DNA of 12,006 nt from a virus (Duplodnaviria; Heunggongvirae; Uroviricota; Caudoviricetes): the IMG/VR virus record IMGVR_UViG_2609460346_000011, positions 1 to 12,006 of that record; one strand, given 5' to 3'. The notes below the pieces were generated by a model that was not told where the DNA came from, searched no databases, and saw nothing but the letters and a program-made list of their open reading frames with translations. Below, in pieces: positions 2,086 through 12,006 of the stretch (its first letter is position 1; every line of letters begins with the position of its first letter). A program made the position numbers and the translations under genes.

Positions 2086-2701
2086 TTATTTTCATTTTAT
2101 AGTCAGCATGGCGCGATATGCGCCTAAACACTTCATACAATAAGAAACATCACTTAACCAAAGATGCATTCATGGTTTAAAAGATGCTCTACCCTTGTTA
2201 AGGAAACCGGAGTAAACAGATATAACAAAATAAAAGAAAGTGGACTATCAGAGGGATATTTTCATCTGTACGTCACACGTAAGAAATATATTTCAAGGAG
2301 CTAAGTTTAAAATCAACATTTATTTACAGAGTATAAAATTGAGTTATTCCGGTTACATTAACCGGATTGGGTGAACTGTTATGATAAATACAAGTAATGG
2401 CGACGTGGGTATATTCTCCACGAGGCATAAACAAACAAACGCTTTAAACATCATAACCGGATGTCCGGGAATACAGCATTATCCTGCTGACTGGAGCGGG
2501 CACATTGCTACATGTGAGGGAAGGAGGCCGGGTACTGGCAGCAGAGTCAAAAAAAGAAGCTCGCTAAAGCTAGCGAGCCAACCAGTCAGTAGTACGCGAT
2601 GGATCTGACATTAAGAATAATAGGCAGAAATAATTATGGCTTTTTTACTCTTAAAAATCAATCACTCAGCGCAAGTGAGCAAAAATAATTTGCAATATTG
2701 C

Positions 2702-2731
2702 TTGACTCGCTTTTTTGTCATGGCGTATCGT
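2702..2731 (+). promoter_or_regulatory. Putative sigma70-like promoter (TTGACT, ~18 bp spacer, TATCGT) reading into the repeat region
   Basis: TTGACT at 2702-2707 and a weak -10 candidate TATCGT at 2726-2731, with AT-rich DNA upstream. Pattern match only. Confidence 0.25.
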
Positions 2732-2756
2732 TTGCCCGCACCTCATAAAGCGGGTG

Positions 2757-2941
2757 CCGGGTTTAGCAGCCTGAACAATCAAGCGGGTAGCCGCTATATT
2801 TCCGTAATGCGGTTTTTTTGTGCCCGTAATTCCACCCTACCCCGTATTATGGCGGGGCGGAATGGGGGGGCCTTTGCGCTCGCTGGTTCCTTGATTGCCA
2901 GTCTGCTAACCCTGTTACGTCCCGCCACCATGTTTAGCAGC
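2757..2941 (+). promoter_or_regulatory. Non-coding region with direct 10-mer repeats (GTTTAGCAGC at 2761-2770 and 2932-2941) and an internal partly complementary segment (2897-2914); candidate RNA-RNA regulatory module
   Basis: The exact 10-mer occurs twice 171 bp apart. The reverse complement of 2897-2914 (CAGGGTTAGCAGACTGGC) aligns with the first repeat context (CCGGGTTTAGCAGCCTG) at about 14 of 16 positions with one bulge. The 173-aa ORF called across this region translates to low-complexity sequence that does not look protein-like. Confidence 0.35.
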
Positions 2942-2983
2942 GTGCTGGCGAGACTCCGTAAACTTAATCAAGGAGCCGCCAAA

Positions 2984-3157
2984 ATGGCTATATCAACACG
3001 CCCTGATTTTATCTGGCGCTTTATGCAGTGCCACGGTAAAAATATTCGCCTTCATACCGTTACCGCTGCCAGTGAGCGCGAAGCGCGCGCCATGCTTCCG
3101 GCATCCCGTCTGGTCTTTGTTGCCCGTATCCGTGTCCGGGAGGCGTGCCATGTTTAA
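2984..3157 (+). CDS. Hypothetical small protein, 57 aa
   Basis: Internal ATG of the 2636..3157 ORF, with SD AGGAG at 2971-2975 eight nt upstream. Its stop overlaps the next gene's start. No family recognised. Confidence 0.45.
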   Translation: MAISTRPDFIWRFMQCHGKNIRLHTVTAASEREARAMLPASRLVFVARIRVREACHV

Positions 3158-3332
3158 GCTCCTTATCACCCTGATTAACTACCAGAACGGCGACGTTCGC
3201 CAGATGATTCATTCCTGGGAATATCCGACTTATGACGATGCATGGCGTGATGCCTGTCGTATGGCATATTCCCGCAATGACAAACAGGGGCGATTAACCC
3301 ACAAATGCGCAGTAAAAATCATGGAGGGGTAA
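3150..3332 (+). CDS. Hypothetical small protein, 60 aa
   Basis: ATG at 3150 preceded by GGGAGG (3135-3140) and overlapping the stop of the upstream ORF (translational coupling). The longer 3072 start lacks an RBS and overlaps the upstream gene. No family recognised. Confidence 0.4.
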   Translation: MFKLLITLINYQNGDVRQMIHSWEYPTYDDAWRDACRMAYSRNDKQGRLTHKCAVKIMEG

Positions 3333-3334
3333 CG

Positions 3335-3523
3335 ATGTACGAGATTCATATTAAATTGCGTAATGTGGTAACAGGAGAGGAAGAAAACTTCTACACGATA
3401 CGTAAATATAAATCAAAAGGAAAAGCGGCAAGGGACGCTATCAGGTATACGGAAGAAATTGCGCCGAAATATCAATTGCCAGAAGAAGAATTCACAGCAT
3501 CAGTGGTAAAGGTGAAGAAATGA
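3335..3523 (+). CDS. Hypothetical small protein, 62 aa (Lys/Glu-rich)
   Basis: ATG at 3335 with SD GGAGGGG five nt upstream; stop TGA overlaps the next start (ATGA at 3520-3523). No family recognised. Confidence 0.45.
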   Translation: MYEIHIKLRNVVTGEEENFYTIRKYKSKGKAARDAIRYTEEIAPKYQLPEEEFTASVVKVKK

Positions 3524-3738
3524 AAAGCCGTTCAATATCCCGTAAAAATAATGGCAGTGGTGAAAAACGTTTCTTTGTGTTGGGTTATGCCGTTAATAAA
3601 CGTGGGTTAACCAAACATGCACATGCAACGGTATACGGAACAGGACCGGGCGAAGCCATACGCCGCGCAGCCGAAGGGCTGGAAGAGCTGGGAATGACAC
3701 ATTTCAGGGCATTGAAGGTTACGCAGCTTTCCGCCTGA
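3520..3738 (+). CDS. Hypothetical small protein, 72 aa
   Basis: Start overlaps the upstream stop (ATGA) and a purine-rich stretch lies upstream. No family recognised. By position it could correspond to the small ORFs preceding the primase gene in P4-like elements. Confidence 0.45.
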   Translation: MKSRSISRKNNGSGEKRFFVLGYAVNKRGLTKHAHATVYGTGPGEAIRRAAEGLEELGMTHFRALKVTQLSA

Positions 3739-3805
3739 TTCCTTAATTACCAACTGATAACTGAATTAAATTTATATTTCGATCTTAACGGGTCGGGGAG
3801 TTTTT

Positions 3806-4105
3806 ATGTCTAAACGTCAGAATAGCGAAATTTTTTTAGATAGAGAATATGCTGGCTTTTTTACAGAAAGTGCAAAGGAAGATCTCACAGATGTGATTAA
3901 TCTCGTCAGTTTAATATCTGTGGTCTTTGGCGATAAAAATGGTAGAGCATCAGCAGAAATTATAAATGAAGAAATTGTATCTCTGTCTAACATTATTTAT
4001 AGGGAATTACAATCAATAAAATCTGGTATGCATTCATCCGGCGGAATTTTTTCATGGCATAGCGCCGAAACCGCCGGGATTGCCAAAGCAATAAGCAACG
4101 AGTAA
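3806..4105 (+). CDS. Hypothetical protein, 99 aa, encoded in a markedly AT-rich segment
   Basis: SD GGGGAG six nt upstream of the ATG. Codon usage and GC content are clearly lower than in the flanking genes. A perfect hairpin follows immediately downstream. Confidence 0.5.
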   Translation: MSKRQNSEIFLDREYAGFFTESAKEDLTDVINLVSLISVVFGDKNGRASAEIINEEIVSLSNIIYRELQSIKSGMHSSGGIFSWHSAETAGIAKAISNE

Positions 4106-4115
4106 TTAATAAAAA

Positions 4116-4140
4116 CCCCACTGCAAAAGGTGCAGTGGGG
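4116..4140 (+). terminator. Perfect 10-bp stem hairpin (CCCCACTGCA / AAAGG / TGCAGTGGGG), intrinsic terminator or RBS-sequestering structure
   Basis: Perfect inverted repeat seen directly, preceded by an A-tract and followed by a U-rich stretch. The right arm overlaps the purine-rich SD (GGTGGAG, 4138-4144) of the primase gene. Confidence 0.5.
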
Positions 4141-4153
4141 TGGAGTTTTATAT

Positions 4154-6823
4154 ATGAAATCTGACATCAGAAAAGAGATTATTAACCGTCTTATCCGTGA
4201 TTACAACTTCAAAGAAGAAAATAACTACCTCCGATATGGTGTTTGTCCACAATGTGGAAAGAAAGAGCTGTTTACCAGCCTTGAGAAGCCGTACATCGTA
4301 CACTGCGGGCGTGAAAATAAATGCGGTACAGACCTGCTAACCAAAGAACTTTACCCGGATGTGTTTTCATCATGGTCAGATCGCTATATCAGCACGAAAG
4401 ACGAGCCATATGCAGCGGCGGCAGCTTATCTTCAGGAGGCGCGCAATATTGCTGTGGAGCCACTGAAAGGGGTATTCACTCAGGAGCGATACCAGGACAA
4501 GGAAAGCGGCGAACAGGCCGCTACCGTGCGTTTTACACTGGCTGACGGCGTGTGGTGGGAGCGCATCATAGACCGACCGGAACGCTTCGAACGGAAGGCG
4601 AATTTTTCCGGCAGCTACAAGGGGCTGTGGTGGGCTTATCCGGGAACAGATTTAAGCAGGGCCAAGGAAATCTGGATTTGTGAGGGTGTCTTTGATGCAA
4701 TCAGCCTTAACCAGAATGGCATTGCGGCCGTTTCTGTCATGTCTGCCGTGAATTATCCTGATGAGGCGCTGGAAGAACTGGCAAAGCAGTGCGGAGATAA
4801 TCCCCGTCCGGTTATTGTGTGGGCGCTGGATAACGGGCGTGCAGGTGAGCGTTACGCGAAAAAACATGCAGAACGCAGCGCCGAAGACGGCTGGAGAACG
4901 GCGGCGGCGTTACCGGGTAAAAACAGCAATAAACGCGACTGGAATGATTTACACACCGCCGGAAAGCTGCGTAGCCATGATGTAAAAAGATACCGTTATT
5001 ACGGTGATTTATTACTGGCGAAATCCCCAAGAGATAAGGCGCTGATAATATTTTCCTTTTGTGAGCGGAAGGAATTTCATTTTACCTTTGATAACCGTGT
5101 TTTCTGGTTCAAACTGGACATTGAGCGCTATATGAAGGCTGTTGAGCGTGCCAAGAATGAGCGAAATGTTGATGAGGATGAAGCGCGCAAAATTGCACTT
5201 AAGGAATCCGGTACTGTAAAAGAAATCGCAAACTGTAACCCAGCGCCGCTTTATTACATTCGAAATAATGATACGGATGAAGCCTGGTATTACTTCCGTG
5301 TTACGTTCCCGGATGGTGCTACGGTGAAAAACACCTTTACATCAGGACAATTAACATCCGCATCTGAATTTAAAAAACGCCTGTTGCATGTGGCAAAAGG
5401 CGGTATTTATACCGGAACGACTGCGCACCTTGATGCATTAATAAAAAATGACCTTCCCGCAATAAAAAATGTTATCGGTCAGGATTTTATCGGATACAAC
5501 AAAGAGATTGGCGCGTGGCTGTTTAATGATGTCGCGGTTTGTAATGGTAAAACCTACGAAATCAATGAAGAGGATTATTTTGAAATTGATGGCATAAACG
5601 CAAAACCATTGAATAAAAAACCAATATTGCAGATTAACTATAAAAAACCGGATAAATTTACAATATCCTGGGTGGAAGATCTCTGGCTGGCGTTTGGTGA
5701 AAAGGGAATTATTACCCTGGCCTTCTGGCTGGGTTCGTTGTTCAGCGAACAAATCAGGCAGAAAAACACGTCTTACCCTTTTCTTGAGATTACCGGAGAG
5801 CCTGGAACGGGTAAAACAACGCTGATTGATTTTTGTTGGCGTTTGTGTGGCCGTGACAACTATGAAGGTGTTGATCCAACCAAAGGATCGGAATCAGGCT
5901 GGAAGCGAACTTTTGGACAGGTCGCCGGATTACCTGTTGTTCTGATTGAAGCAGACCGGGGAGACAATGCGCAAAAAAGAGGCGCGTTTGACTTCGATAA
6001 CCTGAAAAGCCTCTATAACGGTGGTGGTATTGGGGTACGTGGCGTTAAAACCAATGATAACGCCACATATGACCCCGTTTTTAAGGGGGCTGTCGTGATT
6101 GCGCAAAATGCCACGGTAAACGCCTCGTCGGCAATTATTGAGCGCCTGGTACGTGTATACACCGATAAAAAACGCCACTCACCAGATAGCCGACTGGCAG
6201 CAAAACGGCTGGAGCTTTACCCCGTTGAGCAGGTATCAGGTTTTATCCATCGGGCAGTAAGTCAGGAACGGACGATTATGGAGACGTTTATGGCACTCTC
6301 GGATTCTGAGACAACCCGCCTTTATAGTTGCGAAAATATTCGTCATCAGCGTATTGCCAAAAATCACGCGCAACTTATCGCGCTGGTCAGGGCGCTGAAA
6401 TGCGTTATTGATATCCCGGATGAATGGCTTGATGCCACATGTCTGGAACTGGAGCGAATGGCAGAGGAACAGGCTAAAGCGGTAATGGATGACTTGCCGG
6501 AAGTGATGGCGTTCTGGGAGACGTTCGACTATCTGGACGGCATCACAGCATACGGCGTAAATCATTTTGGCAAGGGACGGCAGAATGAGTTTGCCATCAG
6601 TATCCCGCAACTTGAGCAGGTTGCCGCCGTTCACCACGTGAAGATCCAAACCAATCCCGAAATGATAAAGCTTCTCAAGGCTGGCCGTTCTCGATCGCTG
6701 ATTGGATACAAGCCCGTCCGTAGCGAGGTATCCAGACAGGCGAACGCCGGGAGGGGAATAGCCGAGGCCAGAGAGAAGGAGGTATTGAAATGCTGGATAT
6801 TTAGTAACAAGGAGGGGGCTTAA
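4154..6823 (+). CDS. DNA primase/helicase-type replication initiator (zinc ribbon + TOPRIM/EGxxD primase + P-loop NTPase), P4 alpha-like in architecture, 889 aa
   Basis: Start taken at the ATG at 4154 (MKSDIRK) rather than the upstream in-frame ATG inside the hairpin. N-terminal Cys cluster CPQCGKK...HCGRENKCG; EGVFDA primase-type motif followed by an acidic DNGRAGE segment; Walker A GEPGTGKTT near residue 550. Confidence 0.85.
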   Translation: MKSDIRKEIINRLIRDYNFKEENNYLRYGVCPQCGKKELFTSLEKPYIVHCGRENKCGTDLLTKELYPDVFSSWSDRYISTKDEPYAAAAAYLQEARNIAVEPLKGVFTQERYQDKESGEQAATVRFTLADGVWWERIIDRPERFERKANFSGSYKGLWWAYPGTDLSRAKEIWICEGVFDAISLNQNGIAAVSVMSAVNYPDEALEELAKQCGDNPRPVIVWALDNGRAGERYAKKHAERSAEDGWRTAAALPGKNSNKRDWNDLHTAGKLRSHDVKRYRYYGDLLLAKSPRDKALIIFSFCERKEFHFTFDNRVFWFKLDIERYMKAVERAKNERNVDEDEARKIALKESGTVKEIANCNPAPLYYIRNNDTDEAWYYFRVTFPDGATVKNTFTSGQLTSASEFKKRLLHVAKGGIYTGTTAHLDALIKNDLPAIKNVIGQDFIGYNKEIGAWLFNDVAVCNGKTYEINEEDYFEIDGINAKPLNKKPILQINYKKPDKFTISWVEDLWLAFGEKGIITLAFWLGSLFSEQIRQKNTSYPFLEITGEPGTGKTTLIDFCWRLCGRDNYEGVDPTKGSESGWKRTFGQVAGLPVVLIEADRGDNAQKRGAFDFDNLKSLYNGGGIGVRGVKTNDNATYDPVFKGAVVIAQNATVNASSAIIERLVRVYTDKKRHSPDSRLAAKRLELYPVEQVSGFIHRAVSQERTIMETFMALSDSETTRLYSCENIRHQRIAKNHAQLIALVRALKCVIDIPDEWLDATCLELERMAEEQAKAVMDDLPEVMAFWETFDYLDGITAYGVNHFGKGRQNEFAISIPQLEQVAAVHHVKIQTNPEMIKLLKAGRSRSLIGYKPVRSEVSRQANAGRGIAEAREKEVLKCWIFSNKEGA

Positions 6824-6825
6824 GT

Positions 6826-7827
6826 ATGTCGATCAGAAAGATGGATGATGGGCGATGGCTGCTCGATATCAGGCCCCAAGGGGCGTACGGCAAACGGATA
6901 CGTAAAATTTTTGTCAGGAAAGGGAGTGCGGAGGTCTTCAAAGAACATATTTTACAGAATTTCCATAACAACCCATGGCTGGCTAAACCTGCTGATCGAC
7001 GGAGATTATCAGAGCTGCTTGATATATGGTGGATGCTTGATGGCCGTAACCAGGCTTACGGTGATACCTACAGGATTCGGATGGAGAAAGTGATTCGTGA
7101 AATGGGAGATCCGCGTGCCAGCCAGATGACGCAAAAATTTATGCTTGAGTATCGGTCAGAGAAATTACAGGCCGGCTTAATGCCATCCAGCATTAATCGT
7201 GACTTGTGCGTTCTGTCTACCATGTTCACGGTGCTGATTGAAGCTGAGGTCTTTCACAACCCGAACCCTGTACGCGGTATACGCAAGCTAAAAATTCAGA
7301 ATACAGAGATGGCCTTTCTTTCTGATGATGAGATTGAGCGGCTTCTTGAGCGACTGGAGGGGGATGCGCGTCGTGTTGCCATTCTGTGTCTTTCTACTGG
7401 TGCCCGATGGAGTGAAGCATCGGAACTACGTGGAGAGCACATCATTGGCAACCGGGTGACGTTCTTTAACACCAAAAACGGAAAATCCCGTTCGGTTCCT
7501 GTGGCTGATTCGGTCGTGCCGCTGATTAAGACCCACCGGACAGGGGTGTTGTATCAGGTTGATTATCTGAAGTTCCGGGAGATCCTTCAGGAGGTGAAGC
7601 CGGATTTACCGAAGGGGCAGGCTACGCATGTCATGCGTCATACATTTGCCACACACTTTATGATGAATGGCGGAAATATTGTTACGTTACAACGAATCCT
7701 GGGGCATGCCACGATTCAACAGACAATGACGTACGCGCATTTTTCTCCCGACTATCTGGCGGATGCCATGAGGTTTAACCCGATAGCTAACATGGCATTC
7801 ACTGAACAAGAAGAGCCAGCAGAGTAA
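6826..7827 (+). CDS. int: Tyrosine integrase, P2 Int-like family, 333 aa
   Basis: Near end-to-end resemblance to the P2 integrase as I recall it (MSIRKMDDGRWLLDIRPQG..GKRIRK...AILCLSTGARWSEA...GQATHVMRHTFATHFMMNGGNIVTLQRILGH...TYAHF). Catalytic Arg, HxxR box and Tyr are present. The ATG lies 2 nt after the primase stop, with the SD (AAGGAGGGGG) inside the primase 3' end. Confidence 0.85.
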   Translation: MSIRKMDDGRWLLDIRPQGAYGKRIRKIFVRKGSAEVFKEHILQNFHNNPWLAKPADRRRLSELLDIWWMLDGRNQAYGDTYRIRMEKVIREMGDPRASQMTQKFMLEYRSEKLQAGLMPSSINRDLCVLSTMFTVLIEAEVFHNPNPVRGIRKLKIQNTEMAFLSDDEIERLLERLEGDARRVAILCLSTGARWSEASELRGEHIIGNRVTFFNTKNGKSRSVPVADSVVPLIKTHRTGVLYQVDYLKFREILQEVKPDLPKGQATHVMRHTFATHFMMNGGNIVTLQRILGHATIQQTMTYAHFSPDYLADAMRFNPIANMAFTEQEEPAE

Positions 7828-9004: not shown

Positions 9005-9187
9005 ATGTCTTTCCCTTGCCCGGCCTGTGGCGCTTCAGCCCGCACCCGTGGTCGTTCGTTGGAAGAACACGAACAAAACATCTACAGAACGTATTACCAG
9101 TGCAATAATATTGAGTGTGGGGCTTGTTTTTGTACGCTTGAGTCGTTTGTACGCATTACTAAGCGCAGGAAGTCGAAAACTTCATAG
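9005..9187 (+). CDS. ogr: Ogr/Delta-family zinc-finger late-gene transcriptional activator, 60 aa
   Basis: SD AAGAGGAG upstream. CPAC...(x)...YQCNNIECGACFCTLESF matches the Ogr/Delta C-x2-C / C-x4-C zinc-finger signature and the FxTxES motif of P2 Ogr as recalled. Confidence 0.85.
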   Translation: MSFPCPACGASARTRGRSLEEHEQNIYRTYYQCNNIECGACFCTLESFVRITKRRKSKTS

Positions 9188-9636: not shown

Positions 9637-10347
9637 ATGGATATAACTCAGGCAAGCGCCGAACATCAGGTATGTAAAGCACAGTTTGATACAGCCATGG
9701 CAAAACTCAGTGAACAGGAATCATTAATCACCAATCTGGAAGCAACTATCGAACAGACGAAAGGGGAGCTGGAATCTCTCGATCGTGACTGGCAGAACTC
9801 AATCCTGTCTGCGCTGGGCGTAAAAACGGAAGCCTCCGCGAAATTATCCATTCAGGCGGGTGTGGCGCGAGAAAATCTTGAGCGTCTGCGGGTGCTGCAT
9901 GATGAGGCGCGCATCAGGCTACTGGAGTGTCGTTATAACGCGGCAGAGGCTGGTTGTGCTTACGAAAGCATTGATAATAAGTTGCGGGCAGAGATATTTG
10001 CAAAAGCACTTCCCGAACTGATTAACGAGCTGACCCCTGCTCTGTTATTGATTCGTGGTTTATGTGAGCTGCTTGGCCAGCCGCTGTATAACGCAGAAAA
10101 GAAAATATGCGAAACACTGAAAGCGACAGATACTGCTGAAAGTGTCGGGATGATTCGCGGCCGGATTAACGATACCGAAAGCGACACCTCCAGCCCGCTG
10201 CGTTATTGCCCGGAGAAACTCCCGGATTCGGTAAGCCGCGCAATCAGGAACGCCCCTTCACCTGTACAATGGAGCGCGGCGCGACAGAATCCAGAAAAAA
10301 TGCGCGACCTTGCGGAGGGCAGAGAACTCTGCCGGGGGTGGCAGTAA
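9637..10347 (+). CDS. Coiled-coil alpha-helical protein, 236 aa; putative capsid scaffold or size-determination-like (Sid/Psu/GpO-like) protein
   Basis: SD AGGAG seven nt upstream. The sequence is rich in Ala/Leu/Glu heptad-like segments. It sits immediately upstream of, and is translationally coupled to, the capsid gene (TAATG overlap at 10345-10349). The coding call is reasonably safe; the function is inferred from position and composition only. Confidence 0.5.
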   Translation: MDITQASAEHQVCKAQFDTAMAKLSEQESLITNLEATIEQTKGELESLDRDWQNSILSALGVKTEASAKLSIQAGVARENLERLRVLHDEARIRLLECRYNAAEAGCAYESIDNKLRAEIFAKALPELINELTPALLLIRGLCELLGQPLYNAEKKICETLKATDTAESVGMIRGRINDTESDTSSPLRYCPEKLPDSVSRAIRNAPSPVQWSAARQNPEKMRDLAEGRELCRGWQ

Positions 10348-11618
10348 TGGGCGGTCTGAATACTCCACATTTGCACGGCGCTGATATAGTGAGCCGACTC
10401 AGGGGATTAATGTCCCGGAATCGCCTGAAAGCAAACACAGCAAGCATAAGCGATGAGACGCGTCGCGCGCTGGACAATGAATATCAAAAACTGGAGCGTG
10501 AGCTTGAGCTTCACACCCTGCATACTGCAAGCGGTGGGGGTAATAACGACGGCATTGAGCGTTATAATTGCACTGCTGATTCTGTTGTATCACAACGAAA
10601 TCAACAGGCTCAGATGGTTTTCAATTGCGCTATCGAGTCGATAACCGGAAAGCATCCGAAGGATTTGCACTTTTCTGGTGACACTGCGCGCTATTCGTCA
10701 GAAGTTGAACCCGTTCCCCGCCAGAGTGCAACGCTTGCCAGTGGATGGCAGGCAAATTTCCTTGCTGAAATAACTCCCGTGCCTGTTACGGATATATCAG
10801 GTCGGGTTGTGCTGGTAGACGCTTCGGGGCCGTTGGCACGTACATCGCCACCTCACGAGCGCCGTTCGCCACTACAGGCGCATTCACTGGTTTCAAGGGG
10901 CTACCGCTGCGAGCAGGTTAATTTTGATTTTGCGCTGAACTACGACAATGTTGATGCTCACACATCCGCAAACGGTCTTGAAGGAAGCGCACGGGCTGCT
11001 TTTGAACGCCGGAAATGGCTGGATTTGATTCAGATTGGTTTTAACGGTACGCACTATGCCGATACATCAGATCCCGGAACATATCCGGGGCGTGATGATT
11101 GCGGCGTGGGCTGGTTGCAGAAGTTTCGAAATGAAGCGGCGGGAAGGGTTATCAGCGGCCTTTCTGTTTCATCACCGAAAAGTAATACACGCGGTACACA
11201 CCATACGATAGATGCGCTCGTTCTGGATGCCTGGCAATCCATGATTGATGAACAGTGGCAGGAAGGCATTGTGGCCGTATGCAGTCACAATACGCTGGTC
11301 CGTAAGCAATGGCCTTTGATAAACCGTCTTGATCCATCGCAGATGAATCAGGAAATTTTGCTTAACGAGGAAATCATTAAAAATCCCGTTCTGGGGAATC
11401 TCCCGGCTGTGACCGTTCCATTTTTCCCGGACAATGCTGTATTGATCACACCTCTTGCCAATCTGTGTCTGTACTGGCAGCGTGGTTCCGTTCGTGGCCT
11501 GGTAAAAAACGAGCCTCAGTATAATCGCCTCGCGTTCTATGAGTCCTGTAACCTTGACTGGGTGGTGGGGCAATATGAGGCAGGGTGCTTACTGGATGGG
11601 ATTGACTGGAAAGAATAG
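10347..11618 (+). CDS. Major capsid protein, P2 GpN-like family, 424 aa from the ATG at 10347 (alternative internal start at 10614)
   Basis: Extended motif agreement with P2 GpN as I recall it: CEQVNFDF, GFNGTHYADTSD, GVGWLQKFRNEAAGRV, IDALVLDA, GNLPAVTVPFFPDNAVLITPLANL, YESCNLDWVVGQYEAGCLLDGI. SD-like GGGGGTGG lies upstream of the 10347 ATG. About 89 residues precede the region that aligns with the GpN N-terminus. Confidence 0.8.
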   Translation: MGGLNTPHLHGADIVSRLRGLMSRNRLKANTASISDETRRALDNEYQKLERELELHTLHTASGGGNNDGIERYNCTADSVVSQRNQQAQMVFNCAIESITGKHPKDLHFSGDTARYSSEVEPVPRQSATLASGWQANFLAEITPVPVTDISGRVVLVDASGPLARTSPPHERRSPLQAHSLVSRGYRCEQVNFDFALNYDNVDAHTSANGLEGSARAAFERRKWLDLIQIGFNGTHYADTSDPGTYPGRDDCGVGWLQKFRNEAAGRVISGLSVSSPKSNTRGTHHTIDALVLDAWQSMIDEQWQEGIVAVCSHNTLVRKQWPLINRLDPSQMNQEILLNEEIIKNPVLGNLPAVTVPFFPDNAVLITPLANLCLYWQRGSVRGLVKNEPQYNRLAFYESCNLDWVVGQYEAGCLLDGIDWKE

Positions 11619-11661: not shown

Positions 11662-12006
11662 TTACTTAAGCAGATGCTCTCCACCAATCAGGGTTATGAC
11701 TCTTTCAAGCACATCATTAAATACCCCATCTTCTGCCTCTGTGATTAAGCGCGCTTTCCGCTGACGCCAGTCAAGGGTTTGAATGAGTGTGGTTGCTACC
11801 ACGCTGGGGGCGTCCAGATTTGTTACCGGAACTTCTGTGGGAGCATTTCGTATGCTCGTACTTATGGAGCAGCATATGACAAGCCCGGTGAGTCGGTTAT
11901 ATTGCTCATGGGATAGTATGAGTGCCGGGCGATACTTTCCGATCTCTTTTCCTTTCTGCGGCTCAAAATCCAGCCAGCAAATATCACCACGCTTAGGTAC
12001 AAACAT
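11662..12006 (-). CDS. Type II toxin, MazF/PemK/Kid-family endoribonuclease, 114 aa
   Basis: RGDICWLDFEPQKGKEIGKYRPALILS...LTGLVICCSISTS...VATTLIQTLDWRQRKARL follows the MazF/PemK pattern (RGDI..V.FDP..G.E..G.RPALVLS). The start codon sits on the last three bases of the window, so the upstream partner gene and promoter are not visible. Confidence 0.8.
   Translation of the reverse strand: MFVPKRGDICWLDFEPQKGKEIGKYRPALILSHEQYNRLTGLVICCSISTSIRNAPTEVPVTNLDAPSVVATTLIQTLDWRQRKARLITEAEDGVFNDVLERVITLIGGEHLLK

Follow-up and report, generated by a model that had tools for sequence, protein, structure and literature searches.

A probable C4/CI-type antisense-RNA immunity module in a phage-satellite-like island of E. 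coli

The region between alpA and the replication genes of the viral DNA analysed here (12,006 nucleotides, referred to below as the window) is very probably an antisense-RNA immunity module of the C4/CI type, carried by a phage-satellite-like island. The system is of an already known kind, recognisable with two Rfam models, and the locus adds nothing new on mechanism. Its use lies in annotation: in RefSeq a 173-aa “Icd-like” protein covers the RNA region, relatives have a frameshifted pseudogene in its place, and the RNA gene is unannotated, so that the regulator of the island's replication operon is invisible in the record. A first-pass annotation of the window had proposed a P4-type immunity RNA with two target sites. 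That proposal holds as to family (Rfam C4 and isrK models match, and the pairings covary) and needs amending as to kinship: the nearest relatives are the c4-icd modules of P1 and P7.

Genomic context

The window is 99.9% identical to a locus of E. coli TOE17 (NZ_CP069093), and the gene calls used here are the RefSeq annotation of that locus. In E. coli the element is a chromosomal island of about 12 kb that adjoins a tRNA-Arg gene and lies between yfdC and dsdC. Its gene order begins with an integrase (1-1263) and an alpA-family regulator (1864-2085, + strand; Pfam Phage_AlpA, 5.5e-17) whose position corresponds to that of P4 vis/orf88. The RNA module (2702-2977), an icd-like gene and four small ORFs come next, and then a toprim primase (4154-6823), a second integrase-like gene, an ogr/Delta-like gene, a P2-family capsid homologue and mazEF. 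These coordinates agree with the earlier placement of the module between alpA and an operon of small ORFs and primase. The genes that the RNA would control (3150-6823, + strand) are the small ORFs at 3150-3332, 3335-3523, 3520-3738 and 3806-4105 and the primase itself, which has toprim domains and matches phrog_1139 (DNA primase). A search of the window for tRNA and tmRNA genes found none.

RNA families, folds and promoter

The Rfam model for C4 antisense RNA (RF01695, the family of P1/P7 C4 and P4 CI) matches positions 2845-2932 on the + strand over its full length (model positions 1-87), with 67.3 bits against a gathering score of 45; the covariance-model search that the first-pass annotation had suggested for a P4 CI-type RNA was, in other words, positive. 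Alignment to the annotated 77-nt c4 RNA of P7 sets the ends of the predicted mature RNA at 2851 and 2929 (+ strand, about 79 nt). This RNA is predicted to fold into a long closing stem enclosing two internal hairpins (-40.3 kcal/mol, z -3.25, with the minimum-free-energy structure equal to the centroid) and to finish in a 3′ GCCACC(A) end. The sequence itself shows a tRNA-like stem of the acceptor type and the 3′ GCCACCA. The topology (closing stem plus two hairpins) is that of P7 C4 and P4 CI, and the suggested RNA folding check therefore returned the expected architecture.

Upstream lies a leader RNA of the IsrK / P4 SeqA / c4-a1b1 type (2738-2819, + strand), which matches the Rfam isrK model (RF01394) with 52.1 bits against a gathering score of 50, a borderline pass whose narrow margin counts against our reading. 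The leader consists of a first hairpin (2738-2757), which covaries among P1, P7, P4 and the islands; a second hairpin (2758-2773), which presents the pairing site called a1; the site b1; and a terminator-like hairpin followed by seven U residues (2790-2819). Two further points also weigh against the reading: the terminator, with its short stem and its loop of 14 nt, was missed by a simple scan, and the c4-a1b1 model (RF03163) matches 2725-2777 below gathering (29.5 bits vs 46.7, E 1.8e-5). When the same Rfam searches were applied to reference phages, P4 gave C4 and isrK (74.9 and 60.8 bits) in the same order as the window, and P7 and P1 gave C4 and c4-a1b1, their leaders passing the latter model at 55.5 bits. 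From these family pairs it follows that the window carries a standard two-part module. Both RNA motifs were catalogued in 2010 (PMC2864571).

The promoter-like element that had been noticed at the start of the region is a sigma-70-like sequence at 2702-2731 (+ strand), with a -35 element TTGACT (2702-2707), an 18-nt spacer and a -10 element TATCGT (2726-2731), matching the consensus at 9 of 12 positions. Its geometry is conserved with P1, P7 and P4: when these are aligned together with two other islands, the position of the promoter and the TAT of the -10 element are invariant. It is the counterpart of P51b of P1/P7 and of PLE of P4.

Pairing sites

The observation that first drew attention to the region, an exact 10-mer repeated 171 bp apart, was confirmed: GTTTAGCAGC occurs at 2761-2770 and again at 2932-2941. 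The reported complementarity of a segment between the copies was confirmed as well, at about 14 of 16 positions if one bulged U is allowed and 12 of 14 without gaps (2899-2912 with 2760-2773). That segment is the recognition sequence a′ (CAGTCTGCTAACCCTG, 2899-2914, + strand), predicted to be mostly single-stranded between hairpin 2 of the C4-type RNA and its closing stem, and the two 10-mer copies are its pair of targets. Site a1 (GGTTTAGCAGCCTG, 2760-2773, + strand) holds the first copy, and the a′-a1 duplex (-19.0 kcal/mol, equalled by 11 of 1000 shuffles) is the best for a′ in the whole window. Site a2 (2929-2941, + strand) holds the second copy and is complementary to a′ at 10 of 12 positions (2903-2914 with 2929-2940); at -12.3 kcal/mol, equalled or beaten by 133 of 1000 shuffles, this duplex is not significant alone and counts against the reading.

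The inventory of sites in the first-pass annotation was right for the a sites and incomplete beyond them: a second set, b′/b1/b2, had been missed together with the icd-like gene. Recognition sequence b′ (GGTTCCTTGATTG, 2885-2897, + strand) forms the loop of C4 hairpin 2 and is complementary at 11 of 12 positions to b2 (AATCAAGGAGCC, 2966-2977, + strand). The b′-b2 duplex (-20.4 kcal/mol) is equalled by none of 1000 shuffles, is the best b′ site in the 12-kb window and is the strongest, energetically dominant interaction of the system. Upstream, b1 (CAATCAAGCGG, 2776-2786, + strand) forms eight contiguous Watson-Crick pairs with b′, a marginal duplex (52 of 1000 shuffles equal it) that again counts against the reading. 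Within b2 lies AAGGAG (2970-2975), the Shine-Dalgarno sequence of the icd-like gene, 8 nt ahead of an ATG at 2984. The full layout runs: promoter, hairpin, a1, b1, terminator-like hairpin with U7, C4 (containing b′ and a′), a2, b2 over the Shine-Dalgarno sequence, and ATG.

Elsewhere in the window, b′ and a′ also find secondary strong duplex sites around 10226-10265 and 10726-10765, respectively, probably by chance. An inverted repeat (2738-2752 / 3017-3031) was considered as a further functional pairing and rejected: in the relative L012, positions 2746, 2750 and 2752 are altered and 3017-3031 is unchanged.

Comparative evidence for the pairings

Taken on its own, the single-sequence evidence for these pairings is modest; what makes the case decisive is the comparative data, that is, covariation and concerted changes. 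A search for homologous islands with the primase as query in genome contigs yielded one locus only and was replaced by blastn against E. coli genomes and by a scan of viral contigs with a degenerate C4 pattern. Modules were gathered from five close relatives, from P1, P7, SJ46 and P4, and from seven other satellite-like islands of E. coli, and covariation was computed on an 11-sequence alignment and compared with shuffles and with slid registers. For C4 with a2/b2, 89.7% of cells are paired, 8 pairs (31 cells) are changed on both sides, and the covariation score is 0.377, against a shuffle mean of 0.133 and a best slid register of 0.114. The values for C4 with a1/b1 are similar: 85.8% of cells paired, 8 pairs (29 cells) changed on both sides, and a score of 0.323 against a shuffle mean of 0.112 and a best slid register of 0.078. 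Site b1 covaries with b′ in six pairs (alignment A1) and a2 with a′ in two.

The same pattern appears at a much shorter evolutionary range. Relative to five islands that are 93-98% identical to the window's, most substitutions across 2640-3200 cluster in the pairing sites and in C4 hairpin 1. The clusters fall at 2775-2781 (b1), 2889-2897 (b′) and 2963-2970 (b2), and, for the other set, at 2765-2766 (a1), 2906-2907 (a′) and 2936-2937 (a2).

The pattern scan of viral contigs widened the sample to 125 modules with full flanks, which fall into 37 types by their b′ loop and a′ allele. For 36 of the 37 types the b′ loop is perfectly complemented at fixed positions both upstream and downstream, with matches of at least 6 nt at b1 (at least 7 nt in 35 types) and at least 7 nt at b2, and these 36 types also have a1 and a2 sites that both fit their a′ allele (CT or TC). 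Between non-cognate sites, matches of at least 7 nt turn up in 1.4-2.4% of comparisons. The sole exception (L051) looks like a spurious match to the pattern. These figures are site-wise complementarity counts, used in place of a whole-segment RNAduplex matrix of cognate against non-cognate combinations, which was noisy (the cognate combination was best in most rows, not all). The first-pass annotation had made its proposal depend on the repeats being conserved in homologous islands; the a and b sites are indeed kept there and change in concert. On this strong comparative evidence we regard it as settled that a1/a′/a2 and b1/b′/b2 behave as functional partners.

The icd-like gene and two alternatives to an RNA module

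An icd-like gene of 57 aa (2984-3157, + strand) follows directly on the module, with 45% identity to P7 Icd (E 2e-12) and matches to phrog_1426 and phrog_1743. Its stop codon overlaps the next start (ATGTTTAA, 3150-3157), and it would be the first translated gene of the regulated operon. In RefSeq, this gene is the tail of a longer ORF (2636-3157) annotated as the 173-aa “Icd-like” protein. The first-pass annotation had judged the ORF across the region to be non-protein-like, a judgement that is right for 2636-2983 and wrong for 2984-3157, which is a real Icd-like gene.

Could the longer frame nevertheless be a genuine protein, with the repeats incidental to its coding? The ORF is uninterrupted, and PGAP annotates it here and in close relatives, yet several observations make this highly improbable. 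The NCBIfam model phage_ICD_like (NF033153, 53.1 bits) covers only residues 125-167 of the 173, corresponding to nucleotides 3008-3136; Icd of P1 and P7 starts after b2, and a strong Shine-Dalgarno sequence and ATG stand here at 2970-2986. Substitutions in 2640-2983 relative to the five islands of 93-98% identity number 52, 32 and 44 by codon position, without third-position bias, and cluster at the sites where the RNAs pair. The counterpart of the long ORF is flagged as frameshifted in more distant islands, the alignment holds 1-nt indels, and two RNA families score above gathering across the region. Of a protein-coding frame spanning the whole region, then, only the last 57 codons stand: apart from codons 117-173 (2984-3157) the 173-aa ORF is an artefact, and 2636-2983 is non-coding. 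Still less credible, to the point of being practically discarded, is the idea that the repeated 10-mer and the segment complementary to it arose by chance or are a functionless remnant. The statistics of the single sequence do leave some room for it: by our estimate the probability that some 10-mer recurs exactly within about 300 nt by chance is about 0.04, at least three matches with one mismatch allowed were seen in 8 of 200 shuffles of the window, and the a′-a2 energy is unexceptional. What refutes it is the concerted change of the a and b sites, seen in 36 of the 37 types as well as between near-identical islands, which chance could not produce.

Proposed mechanism and the role of the upstream sites

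By analogy with P1/P7, P4 and IsrK, the C4/CI-type module probably works as follows. The promoter at 2702-2731 would start a transcript near 2738, and the leader, of IsrK/SeqA type, would present a1 and b1 and end in a weak intrinsic terminator. From RNA that reads through, the tRNA-like element of about 79 nt (2851-2929) would be cut out as a stable small RNA; in P1 and P4, the 5′ end of the C4/CI RNA (about 77-80 nt) is made by RNase P. The loop b′ and the single-stranded a′ would then pair with b2 and a2 just downstream and hide the ribosome-binding site of the icd-like gene. With icd untranslated, Rho-dependent polarity of the kind described for P1 and P4 would halt transcription ahead of the small ORFs, which are coupled in translation, and of the primase, and replication functions would stay off. 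The upstream sites a1/b1 may serve as a second target or as a competitor, whether in cis, as part of the precursor, or in trans, when the leader exists as a short RNA of its own. Two observations count against this scheme. A Rho-utilisation site was not identified, and a mild excess of C over G is seen across 2990-3130 only. In addition, the minimum-free-energy fold of the whole leader joins a1/b1 to a′/b′ in cis and keeps the Shine-Dalgarno sequence accessible; before it is processed, the transcript may thus lack self-repression. This modelled fold is compatible with a competitor or decoy role for a1/b1 along the lines of the IsrK model.

The same fold is one of the observations that would suit positive control of the IsrK type, in which the leader, stopping at its own terminator as a short RNA (2738-2819), would target the long transcript or free C4 in trans; by sequestering a′ and b′ it would make the icd ribosome-binding site accessible and turn the operon on. 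The duplicated sites would in that case serve mainly for activation, as an anti-antisense device, and not for repression, and the two modes may coexist. The leader's match to the isrK model includes the terminator hairpin and U-run, and a1/b1 coevolve with a′/b′ as tightly as a2/b2 do. There is also a precedent: the short IsrK of Gifsy-1 activates orf45-anrP translation in trans, and a processed RNA of about 80 nt, complementary to IsrK, lies just downstream (PMC4825925). Against this stand the seqA site of P4, which is needed to establish immunity and does not relieve it, and the IsrK-like elements of P4-like prophages, which were required for viability in TraDIS and suggest a repressive role (PMC3632133). 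The terminator, moreover, looks weak here. We consider activation as the main function unlikely, and retain repression by the C4-type RNA as the preferred reading.

Specificity switching among related elements

Islands 93-98% identical to the window's carry at least five specificity types, and each switch alters three sites together. Across the roughly 125 related modules, about 27 b′ loops combine freely with the two a′ alleles, and in one E. coli strain, ETEC1732, two related islands differ from each other at both a and b. The pairs P1/P7 and P4/phiR73 already illustrate the principle of heteroimmunity. We entertain, tentatively and at slightly less than an even chance, the possibility that the module is a combinatorial, fast-evolving address code. 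Such a code would be in keeping with diversifying selection that stops satellites and P1-like phage-plasmids in one cell from interfering with each other (heteroimmunity). The concerted three-site switches could originate by short-patch gene conversion. The scale and combinatorial structure of this switching may be previously undescribed. In some other islands, two C4 modules lie in tandem; together with the three-site switches and the b′/a′ combinations, these tandem modules could serve as material for a small study on how satellites escape cross-repression.

Comparison with known systems

The heteroimmunity of P1 and P7 rests on c4 RNA, which pairs with complementary stretches near the ribosome-binding site and blocks translation (PMC12197685). 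The similarity of the window to the immI regions of these phages is extensive: by blastn, 2757-2942 matches the c4 region of P1, P7, SJ46 and relatives at 78-81% identity, the order of elements is shared (promoter, a1 b1, terminator-like hairpin, C4, a2 b2 over the ribosome-binding site, icd), a′ is identical in sequence and the RNA fold is the same. What differs is the specificity of b′ and its target (CTTGATT/AATCAAG in the window, CACAATC/GATTGTG in P7, CGTAAGT/ACTTACG in P1), the leader family (c4-a1b1 in P1/P7, isrK here) and the surroundings. P1 and P7 have ant genes (ant1/ant2) downstream, whereas the window has small ORFs and the primase, and Ant-type domains are absent from its downstream ORFs. 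P1 and P7 also have a C1 operator (Op51) upstream; its consensus was searched for here and not found, even with 3 mismatches allowed. The host element is a phage-plasmid of about 95 kb in the case of P1/P7 and a chromosomal island of about 12 kb here.

The system of Gifsy-1 in Salmonella (IsrK - orf45/STnc1160 - anrP) provides a second point of comparison, since the window's leader matches the isrK model including the terminator. The genes that follow the ~80-nt processed RNA of Gifsy-1 depend on translational coupling, and IsrK is regarded as a structural homologue of P4 SeqA (PMC4825925). The outputs differ. In Gifsy-1 an antirepressor-like regulator follows, and the short RNA has been shown to activate; here an Icd-like gene and replication genes follow, and their regulation is predicted.

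P4 immunity comprises the PLE promoter, seqA, the CI RNA (seqB) and seqC and controls the alpha (primase) operon. The CI RNA is processed from the leader and pairs with seqA and seqC, causing premature termination before the replication genes (PMC4825925), and P4-like prophages likewise use homologues of IsrK (= seqA) and C4 (= CI) (PMC3632133). The window shares this logic: an alpA/vis gene, a promoter, a leader site, a small RNA, a site over the ribosome-binding site of a small first ORF, further small ORFs and a primase. The P4 RNA, too, has an old, over-extended “cI protein” ORF annotated across it. P4 differs in having about 100 nt more between leader terminator and RNA and in its recognition sequences (CCTGTGAA and TTCTCAC). 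At the sequence level, blastn of the window gave no match to P4, BLASTP found no similarity between the first P4 ORF and the window's Icd, and the window's primase resembles P4 alpha in toprim and P-loop motifs only (E 5e-4); sid and psu were not recognised in the island, which carries a P2-family capsid homologue instead, along with the ogr/Delta-like gene. Judged by sequence, then, the module is closest to c4-icd of P1/P7, and by its position between alpA and a primase operon it is P4-like.

Specificity of the C4-type RNA modules

Across 125 P1-lineage C4 modules from viral contigs (L018-L137), the a' recognition site takes essentially two alleles, CTGCTAAC and CTGTCAAC. About 27 different b' loops are found in free combination with these alleles, a pattern suggesting that the a' and b' elements are exchanged as modules. 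Differences in specificity can be seen within one genome: strain ETEC1732 (NZ_CP122823) carries two related islands, L013 near 4.295 Mb and L138 near 1.549 Mb, that differ at both recognition sites. L013 has b' TCTTTGTCA with the CT allele of a', and L138 has b' TCTCTTACG with the TC allele. The two islands would be heteroimmune to each other; only this one example was seen.

Three other E. coli satellite-like islands have a tandem pair of C4 modules upstream of their primase genes (L005, 3113-3200 and 3594-3681; L006, 3108-3195 and 3588-3676; L008, 3111-3198 and 3588-3676). The recognition sequences of the first module are P4-like in L005 and L006 and of a distinct type in L008, and in all three islands an Icd-like gene comes directly after this module in the order of features. 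The other module of the pair is P1-like and has an Icd-like gene of its own, and the a'/b' specificities of the two RNAs are unlike in each pair.

Annotation and surroundings of the module

RefSeq/PGAP lays a 173-aa "Icd-like" CDS over the RNA module (window 2636-3157; also L005-L008 and L010-L015 among the compared loci) and includes no RNA gene at the module in any of these; only the final 57 codons of the CDS belong to Icd. The counterpart of this extended ORF in related islands is either marked "frameshifted" or appears as two separate "Icd-like" CDSs.

A 15-nt inverted repeat with 87% complementarity has one arm in leader hairpin 1 (2738-2752) and the other in the icd coding region (3017-3031). 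In L012, a relative, the leader arm is altered at three positions without compensating change, so the repeat is probably due to chance. Between alpA and the module lies a 75-aa ORF (2381-2608, plus strand) for which no family matches were found. Inside it is a strong minus-strand terminator-like hairpin (2558-2579), where an unannotated minus-strand transcript may therefore end.

Recombinase, toxin-antitoxin and capsid-homologue genes

Besides the integrase at 1-1263, the window has a second tyrosine-recombinase gene (6826-7827, plus strand; Int_N and Phage_integrase domains) that starts 3 nt past the primase stop. At the island's distal end, dsdC adjoins a minus-strand MazF/PemK-MazE toxin-antitoxin pair (11662-12006 and beyond; 17662-18254 in locus L001).

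On the plus strand, an ogr/Delta-like zinc-finger gene (9005-9187) and a 236-aa ORF (9637-10347), for which a search gave no convincing family match, lie upstream of a divergent P2-family major capsid homologue (10347-11618; phrog_70, 5.6e-76; TIGR01551 below cutoff). Such an arrangement departs from the usual P4-like layout, which would be expected to include sid and psu.
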